Part shown: positions 15,698 through 60,992 of the stretch, in pieces | How positions within the stretch are numbered: the stretch's first letter is position 1 | How the letters are laid out: each line of letters opens with the position of its first letter | Assembly (NCBI GenBank): GCA_964016885.1 | Contig: OZ024750.1 | Coordinates: 11,284,001 to 11,348,000, forward strand | Source of the DNA: Eledone cirrhosa | Taxonomy: Eukaryota | Length of the DNA: 64,000 nt | Reading direction: 5' to 3' | Made by a program: the position numbers and the translations under genes | The notes under the pieces: generated by a model | Databases searched by the model: none | Seen by the model: the letters and a program-made list of their open reading frames with translations, nothing else | Told to the model about the DNA's origin: nothing

Positions 15698-15966
15698 TGG
15701 TGGAACACTGGAAGGTAATATCCGTAGTGGTAGAGCACTCAGTCCATGGGACGAGTTAGGTAAAAGTGGTTACACAACAGTTAGTTCACCATACCGAGAA
15801 CAATTGTTTCACCTTAGCGGATCCTCAGCTCGGAATGGACATGGTTATAGGAACAGGAAGGACAACCGTACCACAGGAAGGACAACCGTACCACAGGAAG
15901 GACAACCGTACGTACGGTTATCCTTCCTGTTCCTATAACCATGTCCATTCCGAGCTGAGGATCCGC
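15698..15966 (-). mobile_element. Fold-back short element (family E1) with HHR and internal 20-bp triplication
   Basis: Inverted arms 15817-15870 and 15912-15966; ACAGGAAGGACAACCGTACC x3; the 3' tail ends in (TA)n at about 15697. Confidence 0.75.
15789..15838 (-). ncRNA. Type I minimal hammerhead ribozyme
   Basis: Reverse complement CCAT-T-CCGAG-CTGAGGA-TCC gctaa GGT-GAAAC AATT GT-T-CTCGG-T-ATGG: intact core, perfect 5-bp stem I plus a 4-bp extension, palindromic stem III (AACAATTGTT). Confidence 0.85.
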
Positions 15967-16036
15967 ACGCAACAAATAATTGGAGTAAAAATACGATATA
16001 TTAACAAATGGAAACTATAATTATAAAACCATATTT

Positions 16037-16099
16037 ATTTCATTATACATATTTCAAGGACACCAAGTTAAATTATGGTGTACTTTCATCAGATAAAAT
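16037..16099 (-). ncRNA. Type I hammerhead ribozyme (left-arm copy)
   Basis: Inverted copy of 16236-16298 with an intact CTGATGA/GAAA core. Confidence 0.75.
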
Positions 16100-16235
16100 A
16101 TAATATAGAGCAGTTTTATAAATAAATATTGACATACCCTTAAATAATGCGACCATTTTCCGGGAACTTCCAACAGAAATGGTCGCATTCTTTAAGGGTG
16201 CGTCAATATTTATTTATAAAACTGCTCTATATTAT

Positions 16236-16298
16236 ATTTTATCTGATGAAAGCACACCATAATTTAACTTGGTGTCCTTGAAATATGTATAATGAAAT
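16236..16298 (+). ncRNA. Type I hammerhead ribozyme
   Basis: ATTTTAT-CTGATGA-AAG C ACACCA taatttaact TGGTGT C CTT-GAAAT atgt AT-A-ATGAAAT: 7-bp stem I, long stem II, minimal stem III. Confidence 0.8.
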
Positions 16299-17951
16299 AA
16301 ATATGGTTTTATAAATATAGTTTCCATTTGTTAATATATCGTATTATATATATATATATATATATATATATATATATATATATATATATATATATATATA
16401 TATATACTAAATGATTTTCAAATTACTGTGCAATCTCCATTTGAAACCTTCAGTGCTTTGCTCTCAGTAAGTCTAGTTACGACGTGTCTCTTTAATATGG
16501 GGGATTAATATGAAATGCGCAATTCTAACTGAACAAACATTTATATCTATCCTCGTAGTCCATATGACTTTATCTGTTTGATAATAATTTATATTCAACA
16601 AACGTTCATATCTTATTTATATAGATATTTCTGTAATGCCAAATGAAAACAGTTTTAGTTTTATCTAGAGTTTTAAATAATTGAATTATTACGGATTGTT
16701 TTCAATGATATATAATATGAAAGATATTAAGCGATAGAGTCTGATGCAGTTTATTATATGAATTCTATAATCTTTTCTGTGTTTTTATTCGTTAAAAATA
16801 TTGACCATTAATAAATGAAATATTAACCTGAAATAAAGTTACTGCAAAGAAGTTGGGAGGAAACAAACATTATAAAAGTGCCGTATTCAGTTTTGGTCTA
16901 ATATGTTTTAAATTCAAACCCTACCGTTAAGAGTAATGATCCAGGATTTTCAGGCTGGATAATTGATCTGATTTTAATGAATTTGCAGTGCTGATCTCGA
17001 ATCTTCACTGTTATAACAATATATTTCTCGATGAAAATAGAAAATGATTATTTTAGTAGAGTCTTAATTGAAATAGAGTTAATGAGTGTAATACTTTTGG
17101 CTACTTCAGACCAGTTAAGTTGCCAGAATTATGTCAATTCTAAACTGACTACTCTTCAAGACCTCTGATATGTCAAAGTAATCAGTCTTCCCGCTATGTC
17201 ACATCACATCCTTCGCACAACAAAACTCCTAAATATATTGCTAACAGTTATACAGAGGAAGAACATTACCAATAAAAAAGCTAGAAACTAATTAAGAAGA
17301 CTTCGATCACTATATCAAAATATGAAAGGTTGCCATTATAAAACCAAATGTTGCTTTAGTATAATACATCACGTAGCCTCTAAAAACATCAAGAGAACTT
17401 TGTTTTTTATAAATTTGCAAAATTCTTTTTAACCTTCAATCCTAAATTTAGATCACTTGTAAATATCAATTCTGCAGAGGAAGCCATTATATTTGCTGTT
17501 TGTTTTGCTACAATTCCCGTAGTGCACACTTACGCATGCGCACACACAAGAAAGCTGCTTCTGGATCTGTTGCTCAGTCCCTATTTATATCACTAATATA
17601 TAATTACTGTTAAACTTCTATAAATAAGCAGCATCCTTATAAAACTTAAATACTTTAAGCCATTTTTTTTGTTATTATTGTTTCATTGTATTTTGTATTG
17701 CAATAATGTCGTTGGTTTCAGGGTTCCAATAAACCGATGACGGGGTCATAACATTTCCTATTACGTGAATGACAGGGTCACTGCATTTCTGATGACGTGA
17801 ATGTCAGGGGAATATTAGTGTAACTCGATGTAGATCAAATATCACGTGGTTCTTCCTTCGATAAGGTTTGGATGGATTTTTCGTTTCGTTTTTTTTTTAT
17901 TTTCTGTTATTTATATATTTTGTCTATATATGATGACGAACGATATGCCAC

Positions 17952-18155
17952 ATGAAGGAGTCGGCTGAAAAGTTCATAGACTGACCAAGATACTCTCATG
18001 GAATGACCAAATGAGCTCTATTTTTCTACATAGTCCTCGGAAAGAAACAATGCAGTTATTAATAAGAAAGAGTTGAAATTAATGCATGCAAGATTTCACA
18101 GCTCTAGCATCACTCCTTCATAGTCAGCCTATGAACCTTTCAGTCGACCCTCGTA
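17952..18155. mobile_element. Mariner-like MITE
   Basis: TIRs GTCGGCTGAAAAGTTCATAGACTGAC and GTCAGCCTATGAACCTTTCAGTCGACCCTCGTA, with a TACGAGGG-type mariner end. Confidence 0.75.
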
Positions 18156-19949
18156 TCCTATATTTAGCTTCGTCCGGTCTCGTACGATTCGGATAGCCAT
18201 GATTGAATATTCATTCAAATACTTTTGTATTTAGAGTGACTGTTATTACTTCTTGTTTCGTTTCTCAGTGTTCTGGATTCAAACCCATCTTGATAAAGCA
18301 GGACCATCATTAATAGTGTTCCAGTCGTGACCATCCATCTTTTTATATCCGGGTTTACGTTCTCCAATATGTTTCTATATTCAAGCCGACAGTGTATACT
18401 TGTAAAGAGATTTGCTATTTCTTGCAGTTTGAACATTTTTGACACTCGCTCGTTGGTTCCGTAAAAGTACATCTAATATCCTTTTCGGTAATATAATTAA
18501 CTTTGAAATGCTACTTTTAAGATTATTTCTCATCGATTCCAACCACAATTCCAACGAAACTAGCATGAAATTCTCACCAAATAAAATTCAGTATTTCGCT
18601 ATTGAGTTGTGACGTCCATATCGTTTTCATTTGCTTTTGATTGTAACCTGCAGCATTTATAACATTGTCCAGTTGTATGGTTTCTAAACGTTGTTTATAT
18701 ATATATATCCATATATCTTTTCTTTATTTTGGTTTGTAGATATTGATTTATTCTATACCTGTTACTAGCAGGAATATCTTTGATTGCCATGAGATGGTGT
18801 GGTTCAAGCTATTTTACAACATAACACTGTAATATAGATCTACAATACGGTAATATATATTTTACTGAAATACTTTAAGCACTTCATGTATAGCAAATAC
18901 TATTGATATTGAAGATGCGATGGGCACTGTAGTTTTGCGTTTGATTGTTCTATATATCAATTACTACTCCAAGCCTTTCTTGAATATTAGTTAGGCTTCG
19001 TAAAGCAAACATAATAACACTACAAAATTAAATTTTCATTTATGATAGAATAGAAAATATTCATTACAAAAGCTTCAGTTGTCTTGAATGCATACGATAT
19101 TGTAACATAATAATACCAAACTTCTACAGTAAAATGTTGGTCTTCTACAGTAAAATGTTGAATCTCCTCCTAACTGAAGAGATTGTAAAAGGCATTTACA
19201 CACGAACGCACGCGCGCACGCACACACACACACACACACACACACACACACACACACACACACACACACACACACACACACACACACACACACACACACA
19301 CACACACACACAAATAGTAATAAGTAATAAGCGATGTCTGAGACCTGAACCACTAAGATTGTCTGTGTGTATTTCTAATCTTTGGTATGCAAGTTTGAAA
19401 GTTATGCCAAAATTTGTGATATATATGTAAAATATTCTGGAAAATCTTATTAAAAGACTTGACTCACGTACAAATGTGATAACACAAGATGAATGAGAGA
19501 AACCGGTAGATCGAAATTCCTCGAATACTTTCACCAGCAACTTATACAGCAATGGTTTTACATGTAAAGGTGTCGACTTGTAGAACTGTATCAAGCATGA
19601 ACATCATTCCCGAGACATTTGAAAAACCAACAGATGTCGTCTAGATAGATGTTATTCTAATATATCAGATCAGTCATCCGTATATGACTACAACGAAAGC
19701 AAAACAACTTCCACTAAATTTCATGGCTGATCAACTGGACAATATATATTTACTTAATAATCTAATAAAAATATTGTATTCATGGATATTAGCAGACTCA
19801 ATTACAGAATACTTAGAACTTTCAACTCTGGAGGCAACGGTCTTACATGACCTTGGCTGTATTGACTAAAGGAAACACAAAACAAACGCTCAAACACTCA
19901 CATACACGCACACACACATACATACATTATATACATACTATAATACGTA

Positions 19950-60144: not shown

Positions 60145-60196
60145 GGCTTCTACGGGATTAGAACTGTTTCATTCGAAAACAATCATCAGAAAAGCC
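60145..60196 (-). ncRNA. Family C hammerhead variant
   Basis: Reverse complement GGCTTTT-CTGATGA-TTG tttt CGAAT-GAAACAG ttctaatc CCGT-A-GAAGCC. Stem I differs from the 31436 copy on both strands while keeping pairing. Confidence 0.65.
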
Positions 60197-60389
60197 CTTT
60201 CCTCATGATTTCTTTCGAATGAGTCCTGTAGAAGCCATTTATATATAAAATATGATATTTACACTGTACTAATGTTTTAAGTACCTTACTTACTGAGGTT
60301 ACCCCCCATTAGAACCGGGACTCACCCACACACACACGTTACATATATATATATATATATATATATATATATATATATATATATATAAT

Positions 60390-60660
60390 ATCTTTCACCG
60401 TATTTTTTTACTAAAGAAAATTTAGTCTGATAATGGGGTTTAGAACCCTCAGATAAATGGAAAAAGATGAGTATTGACGTACATGGGAGCCACATCTTTA
60501 GTTATCCAGACCATGTACGTCAATACTCATCCTTTTCCATTTATCTGAGGGTTCTAAACCCCATTATCAGACTAAAATTTCTTTAGTCTAAAAATACGGT
60601 GAAAGCTATTCTATTTTCTAATTTCAAACCTGCTCACTGTTTCAAAACATATTTACTAAT
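60390..60660 (+). mobile_element. Family D fold-back element in (TA)n
   Basis: Arms of about 95 bp (60392-60486 and 60511-60605) surround a tRNA-head remnant, plus a 3' tail shared with 61041-61186. Confidence 0.85.
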
Positions 60661-60689
60661 ATATATACATATATATATATATATATATA

Positions 60690-60826
60690 TAACGGAGGAG
60701 TTGTGGTAAGGAATCAGAAGGACCATAACGCACCAGAGTACTCAATACTTAGGGTAGTAGAGTGGATAATAGGAGAAAGTATGACCCCAACGGCAGAGCT
60801 AAAGCCGTTTCGACGGCTATTTCTGT
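60690..60826 (-). mobile_element. Family B element in (TA)n
   Basis: Reverse complement GAAACGGCTTTAGCTCTGCCGTTGGGGTC plus tail. Confidence 0.8.
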
Positions 60827-60871
60827 ATATATATATATATATATATATATATATATATATATATATATATA

Positions 60872-60992
60872 TTTAATATAGAAGATATTCTACAGTCCTG
60901 TAGTAGGTCTTCTATATTAAAACATTTATACTCTGCTATGTATTGAGTACCTTACTTACTGTGATTACCTCCGATTCAACCCGGAATAACTT
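60872..60992 (+). mobile_element. Family C short fold-back fragment
   Basis: TTTAATATAGAAGATATTCTACAG tc CTGTAGTAGGTCTTCTATATTAAA plus the family C tail. Confidence 0.75.

Follow-up and report, generated by a model that had tools for sequence, protein, structure and literature searches.

The stretch of DNA analysed here (the window) comprises 64,000 nucleotides of Eledone cirrhosa (assembly GCA_964016885.1, contig OZ024750.1, positions 11,284,001 to 11,348,000 of the forward strand) and holds short insertions of several repeat families, designated A, B, C, D, E1 and E2, in which hammerhead ribozyme parts are followed by a ten-nucleotide motif, YYGAGTNCYY, and then by a (TA)n run (Table 1; positions are those of the window). 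The only copy that lacks hammerhead parts 5' of the motif is that of family D at 31806, a bare tail. The initial annotation had described the motif as a signal lying 35-45 nt from the end of otherwise unrelated families, serving either the mobilizing reverse transcriptase (RT) and endonuclease (EN) or 3' processing, and uniting the families into one clade. All eight of the 10-mers listed there were recovered at their coordinates and on their strands, 34-44 nt 5' of a TA run, and the motif was enriched over shuffled sequence, with 16 YYGAGTNCYY matches in the window against 3.13 expected and none of 100 shuffles reaching 16. Not all of these matches represent the motif: that at 49558 coincides with the cleavage site of the E2 hammerhead, that at 49481 reads the site at 49479-49488 on the opposite strand, and 31346, 33419 and 35243 have no element context. 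True copies absent from the first list were found at 31678 and 60736 (family B, minus strand), as was, for family A, a GAGC variant on the minus strand at 20200-20209.

Motif-to-end distances were surveyed in a genome-wide sample of 91 ten-kb stretches of the genome (G000) taken at round coordinates (910 kb), minus the window and its four neighbours. YYGAGTNCYY matches clustered upstream of TA runs and matches to the reversed pattern did not: a (TA)4 run lay 34-46 nt downstream of 39/128 matches (background 1.8% of positions) and 29-80 nt downstream of 68/128 (background 6.3%), in comparison to 0/45 and 1/45 for the reversed control. Copies of the same family are non-independent, so that p-values for this positioning are overstated. 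The proposed spacing of 35-45 nt held within the window and failed in general, as 29 of the 68 positioned matches lay outside 34-46 nt and, by family, 8 of 14 were within 34-46 nt with a range over all 14 of 29-89 nt.

A search of the genome with family B showed that its copies share one build, a (TA)n run, an inverted arm, a forward arm and a second (TA)n run, where the inverted arm starts at a fixed inner end and the forward arm continues for another 80 nt or so before stopping at a fixed outer end. From an endonuclease open reading frame (ORF) in the flank of one B copy, tandem arrays were reached whose 3531-bp unit carries a single 717-aa ORF encoding RT and then a C-terminal GIY-YIG domain (domain order from motifs; a Pfam search with the B protein returned 0 families), and the motif lies about 148 nt 5' of the ATG in this unit. 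Four near-identical B tandem units with intact ORFs stand together in one locus (L100, G000:C1:437199501 on).

Parent ORFs were traced for A, B, C, D (the family of the 31806 copy) and F, a family common in the genome, and those of A, B, C and D belong to Hydra-clade Penelope-like elements (PLEs), which bears out the expectation of a single clade. Statements on cited papers refer here and below to passages of those papers. The Hydra clade is defined by a CxCX5C linker, DKT, RWK and the lack of CCHH (PMC8557442), and family B was assigned to it because of its CxCX5C linker, its DKT, an RWR form of RWK and the lack of CCHH. The linker reads CNCRNRVDC in A and CNCPDRSIC in B, CNC...CPL was found in C and D fragments, and the F sequence ends short of it; DKT in place of DKG occurs in A, B, C, D and F, RWR instead of RWK in A, B, C, F and most D copies, and CCHH is absent from the A and B proteins. 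The A, B, C, D and F proteins are 41-52% identical pairwise and 33-39% identical to a relative on metagenome contigs L160/L161. Hits ending in TA runs, counted over a random set together with the window and its neighbours, were 33/35 for A, 50/60 for B, 22/35 for C, 4/4 for D and 40/48 for F. By these pairwise identities and motifs, families A, B, C and D can be assigned as the 3' ends of autonomous Hydra-clade PLEs. The families are therefore not otherwise unrelated, having hammerhead, ORF and two-end anatomy in common. A further motif-bearing family, H21, follows a Hydra endonuclease in L174. Families E1 and E2 have the hammerhead, the motif and two ends, and read-through into an ORF, looked for in the genome, was not found for them.

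Several other assignments were set aside. Neptune, the first guess, was rejected against the Hydra definition of PMC8557442; Neptune/Nematis and Naiad require a CX2-5CxxC linker with CCHH, or an N-terminal EN, absent from A and B. A non-LTR retrozyme, which is a non-coding repeat in tandem units of 170-400 nt that each bear one hammerhead, is excluded for A, B, C, D and F, which are truncated ends of coding units; this exclusion does not extend to E1 or E2. A coding role of the motif was discarded, as it lies 5' of the ATG in A, B, C, D and F. Two other PLE ORFs of the genome have the CX2-5CxxC linker and CCHH, and their ends lack the motif. These two non-Hydra ORFs, on the minus strand of L101 and L102, likewise terminate at (TA)n; one of the two families shows several fixed ends and no RCTC/GAGY hairpin, and the other has a hammerhead at window position 63890.

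The predicted hammerhead core is canonical in C, E1 and F, and in B it is the U3-A8 variant described in PMC4209133; in the L100 units of B, which have the U3-A8 core, loop II spans about 40 nt. Deviant cores, CAGAAGA in A and CTGATCA in D, are each common to many copies (L200-L227; L231, L341), and predicted cleavage may therefore have been lost or altered in these successful families. For the 31806 copy a degenerate hammerhead was rejected, since its upstream DNA is another family. A hammerhead-anchored census gave 103 candidates in 8 families, though it was too strict and missed B, A and F.

The motif itself corresponds to the 3' strand of a bulged stem-loop predicted in the RNA, RCTC...YY-GAGY-RCYY (H1), in which an RCTC 5' of GAGY would close an interior whose length ranges from 5 to about 70 nt, with GAGY preceded by two unpaired bases and followed by RCYY. 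All four pairs of this helix (P1) are intact in 20/21 copies of A, 80/87 of B, 77/78 of C, 11/12 of D, 20/23 of F, 7/8 of G, 4/4 of H21 and 2/3 of E, counted by flank-anchored patterns because MAFFT alignments of the hairpins, whose interiors differ in length, were out of register. The pairs covary between families as ACTC/GAGT, GCTC/GAGC and GCAC/GTGC, with GCCC/GGGC in the published consensus Hydra-1_Crog. P1, of only 4 bp, was predicted with a probability of at least 0.7 in 8/16 folds and about 0.4-0.5 in 2/16, and reached 0.91-0.97 per pair in a sister copy of the E1 hairpin; being short, the helix would need protein. A transcription-factor site or a splice donor accounts for neither pairing nor spacing. 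The hairpin was absent from the two non-Hydra PLE ORFs and, in any copy seen, from 5/8 families of the hammerhead census, and it is therefore a clade marker and not a feature of all TA-inserted hammerhead repeats. Short endonuclease fragments (L163-L167) had no motif under the pattern used. Some family C copies (L248, L249, L250) repeat the tail alone in tandem, from H1 to just beyond the outer end.

Each of the five families for which full-length parents were found carries the predicted hairpin twice per element, between the hammerhead and the start codon, with a second copy (H2) beyond the outer end in tandem units of A, B, C, D and F. H2 patterns matched 18 times for D and in 34/35 cases for F, with 0 matches to reversed controls in both, and 93 times for C with GCAC/GTGC, a pattern derived from two read-through copies; the D and F patterns presupposed H2. 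These hits read into a Hydra ORF at 22/25 loci for C, 10/12 for D and 11/12 for F, and the H2 pairs are intact in 17/18 copies of A, 2/2 of B, 24/24 of C, 10/10 of D and 8/10 of F. H2 ends 12-21 nt 5' of the ATG in A, C, D, F and L160, and 61 nt in B. The metagenome element (L160/L161), which is 37% identical, has both hairpins, and its copies on the two contigs diverge a few bases before H2. Among the six Hydra consensi in File S7 of PMC8557442, inspected by eye, Hydra-1_Ajap shows both hairpins, Ajap-2 and Amil-2 show H1, and Hydra-1_Crog carries its GCCC/GGGC form at the 5' end. Six motif 9-mers occur seven times in that supplement, four in Hydra hairpins and three in the Naiad and Chlamys files, which are far longer, and line breaks can hide matches.

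Each insertion end lies just 5' of a hairpin, at a spacing of 5-9 nt. The distance from the inner-end T of the TA run to RCTC was 5-8 nt in all 14 families with a mapped inner end (standard deviation, SD, 0.9), in comparison to 19-82 nt from the inner end to the GAGY motif and 29-89 nt (SD 18) from the motif to the outer end. In family M, where the hairpin strands are about 70 nt apart, the inner end tracks the 5' strand. Modal distances from the outer end to H2 were 6 nt for A, B and D, 8-9 nt for C and 8 nt for F. A fixed distance from motif to 3' end was thus not upheld, the constant spacing being that from each end to the 5' strand of the hairpin just downstream, and the 35-45 nt reported initially is therefore the H1-to-H2 spacing of the window families. 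A third apparent end inside the H1 loop of A (12 junctions) was an alignment artefact. A 3'-processing signal, one of the two roles suggested at the outset, is unlikely: the tandem unit continues past the outer end, which falls within the 5' untranslated region (UTR) of the next ORF. The other, a signal for the element's own RT and endonuclease, is the most likely.

We consider it probable that the motif hairpin, carried by Hydra-clade PLEs between hammerhead and ATG, positions the RT start at the UA just upstream. The transcript would fold into H1 and H2, and the protein, perhaps as a dimer, would bind both. The endonuclease would nick both strands of a (TA)n target, and each nicked 3' end would pair with the UA before one hairpin, priming cDNA. 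Synthesis of the two cDNAs on a single RNA would halt at one and the same RNA end, and the cDNAs would be joined head to head, with H2 left uncopied and H1 copied in the outer-ended arm only, inside its 'tail'. More tentatively, and with rather less confidence than in the positioning itself, the template might be defined internally in a telomerase-like manner, a dimer on two homologous docking hairpins priming two cDNAs from a nicked TA repeat. In a Poseidon PLE, RT starts at either boundary of the tail and on either strand of the target, the starts match the genomic ends, RNA 3' of the starts is required and a dimer is predicted (PMC11167929).

Inverted insertions lying fully inside the loci paired one inner-ended with one outer-ended arm in 112/113 cases. 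The main rival explanation has H2 setting a sole RT start and the cDNA folding back and copying itself until it stops at the base of H1, which would give the inner end. Self-priming of this kind has been proposed for PLE palindromes (PMC3846280), and the near-equal arms that fold-back predicts were observed, with 5' extents within 10 nt in 68/112 pairs, which weighs against two independent starts. In the remaining pairs the inner-ended arm was more than 10 nt longer in 27 and the outer-ended arm in 17, as measured against references that for A, C, F and G span only 170 nt upstream. The 27 inner-ended arms exceed their supposed template at the 5' side by up to 195 nt, which later one-sided deletion could explain. 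Moreover, H1 and H2 share unpaired letters and spacing that would be needless for a mere block, and both ends are RT starts in vitro in the Poseidon element (PMC11167929), so that we regard a single start followed by fold-back as unlikely.

Alternatively, the hairpins may serve translation or the packaging of RNA in cis, in which case microhomology would place the ends at the closest UA and the spacing would be a by-product. The closeness of H2 to the ATG agrees with this, as does the position of most mapped ends on an element TA or T able to pair with the target. Many other TAs in the UTR are nevertheless unused, family B places 201/218 TA-terminated ends at two sites, and the TATATA loop in the H1 of A is read through in 35/38 copies with 0 ending there in a TA run, making this explanation quite improbable. 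We hold as very improbable that the GIY-YIG endonuclease recognizes the motif in DNA form and cuts or resolves an intermediate near the tail. The Drosophila virilis Penelope EN needed tail DNA for recognition (as cited in PMC11167929), and PMC8557442 proposed that resolution by the EN gives rise to a tail; however, strands 5 to about 70 nt apart that covary as pairs are unexpected of a double-stranded DNA site, and H2 is not in the inserted DNA yet marks the outer end. Mere inheritance of a functionless ancestral remnant, which the membership of all traced families in one clade would allow, can hardly be entertained, being largely refuted by the compensatory changes; pairs and bulge also persist at 33-52% protein identity, where flanks and interiors lack similarity, and in published coral, sea cucumber and copepod consensi (PMC8557442).

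Other observations weigh against start-site positioning by twin hairpins. A clear inner-end mode was present in only 7/14 families (B 79/88, C 35/61, E1 4/7, F 29/43, G 7/24, I 5/5, M 10/14); six families contributed inner ends of one or two junctions each, picked with hindsight, family A is split between 5 nt (9 junctions) and 9 nt (11), and 3/17 families gave no usable inner end. P1 was not predicted in 6/16 folds, where cross-pairing of H1 with H2 or other helices prevail, and its covariation was counted across related families and not as independent events. H2 was not found for E1 or E2, the initial H2 pattern for C failed, the 3' copy in Hydra-1_Crog has a T-T mismatch, and Hydra-1_Obim and Hydra-1_Amil show no clear hairpin by eye (PMC8557442). 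In Hydra family W, a tandem element (L247:660-2850), GAGY is followed by AACC/AACG and H2 is imperfect, and the tail of Hydra family X has GAGA for GAGY, with the inner end still 7 nt before ACTC/ACTT. The support as a whole consists of sequence and fold prediction. Several decayed motif-like units were also seen right after the stop codon in family X (L168-L170, L175 3' UTR, L228-L230).

Stringent long interspersed element (LINE) and R2 3' stem-loops, together with the template-positioning elements of telomerase RNA, are cases in which an RT-bound RNA structure fixes the start of copying; these form part of the 3' end that is copied, or act a single time. In comparison, the hairpin described here is 3' of a putative internal start, uncopied from that start and present twice. 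With the Hydra clade of PLEs having a C-terminal EN (Craig et al. 2021, PMC8557442), the present elements have in common a single ORF with RT then GIY-YIG, CxCX5C, RW(K/R), DKT, the lack of CCHH, a predicted hammerhead, the (TA)n target, and tandem and inverted copies. The units here are longer (B 3.5 kb, with a 3' UTR above 1 kb), and the tails measure about 68-95 nt against 30-40 nt. A conserved hairpin was not described for this clade in the passages of that paper, and is visible in 4/6 of its new consensi. With PAc, a Poseidon element of Anolis (Frangieh et al. 2024, PMC11167929), the elements would, on the proposed reading, have in common two internal RT starts bounding a tail, an AT-rich target, the use of uncleaved RNA and the need for RNA 3' of the starts. 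PAc differs in belonging to another clade and in having its starts inside the ORF in an AC-rich stem-loop, with no repeated positioning element reported in the passages of that paper. In the present elements the proposed starts fall within the 5' UTR, and a TA is common to most ends and the target. The inverted pseudo-long terminal repeat (pLTR) of Penelope (PMC3846280) likewise has an inverted 5'-truncated arm and a tail on one arm only, but self-priming was invoked and no cis-element named in the passages concerned. Already known are the clade, the hammerheads (PMC4209133), the tail and inverted arm (PMC3846280) and, in other Penelope clades, two internal starts. A description of the hairpin was not found in the literature searched, including passages of PMC8557442, PMC7229834 and bioRxiv 10.64898/2026.07.22.740005; subscription papers, Repbase notes and figures may hold one.

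PLEs are the closest retroelement relatives of telomerase, and the single in vitro study of how they pick the RT start mapped two starts and no signal. A short hairpin found across animal phyla, twice per element and at constant spacing to both ends, opens start-site choice to mutational test, for which young intact elements are at hand in the family B tandem arrays. If the reading is true, no cis-element governing the choice of start site in PLEs would have been defined before the twin docking hairpins, which would account for both the tail and the inverted arm and would provide a portable 25-30 nt signal for TA-targeted insertion. The hairpin is also a marker for placing short hammerhead-bearing repeats in the Hydra clade.

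Table 1. Hairpins, hammerheads and insertions in the window.
Feature	Position	Strand	Remarks
Decayed B-like copy with H1	7474..7501	-	Nearest TA run 69 nt off
H1 of E1 (ACTC / inner helix / CT / GAGT / GCTC)	15733..15756	-	Outer end 15696 (sequence)
Type I hammerhead core of E1 (CTGAGGA, stem II, GAAA, palindromic stem III)	15799..15828	-	Predicted, read from sequence
H1 of family A arm (GTTC / GAGC variant)	20200..20249	-	Hammerhead at 20280-20320
Family C insertion	31420..31613	+	Inverted arm from inner end 31420, forward arm to outer end 31613
Hammerhead core of that family C insertion	31442-31480	-	
H1 of family C	31552..31574	+	P1 strands pair in 77/78 C copies
H1 of family B insertion (31634-31748)	31678..31705	-	
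H1 of family D (long interior)	31806..31859	-	Tail 31764-31870
Candidate H1 (GCTC...TC GAGC ACTC)	49457..49488	+	Single copy in data searched; family unassigned
3' half of E2 hammerhead (GAAA, stem III, GTA site)	49553..49564	+	Contains motif-like match 49558
H1 of family E2 (GCTC / GAGT, one G-U pair)	49600..49623	+	Outer end 49659
Family B insertion	49692..49876	+	Inverted arm from inner end, forward arm to outer end; H1 49805-49832
Family A insertion	50692..50897	+	H1 50814-50863 with 36-nt interior; hammerhead 50714-50754 on minus
Family B insertion	57422..57606	+	H1 57535-57562; hammerhead 3' half 57487-57509
H1 of family B insertion (60691-60812)	60736..60763	-	
Family C insertion	60872..60995	+	H1 60930-60952

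Different families abut directly at 20166-20500, 31420-31870 and 49530-49876, in some cases without a TA spacer, as where a B arm is joined to an A arm at about 20325. The family D tail adjoins a piece of another family and has no hammerhead of its own. A long inverted pair of family F arms at 16040-16345 has two hammerhead cores and is tail-less, both arms apparently stopping at or near the inner end. Among the Rfam matches listed for the window (150 of 202), microRNA-like hits to palindromes and simple repeats and one tRNA-like short interspersed element (SINE) were found, and no hammerhead. A SINE-like unit common in the genome occupies 28121-28973 as a 238-bp tandem repeat of 3.6 copies, and a minisatellite of 63-71 bp units made around TA and TG runs lies at 57860-58746.

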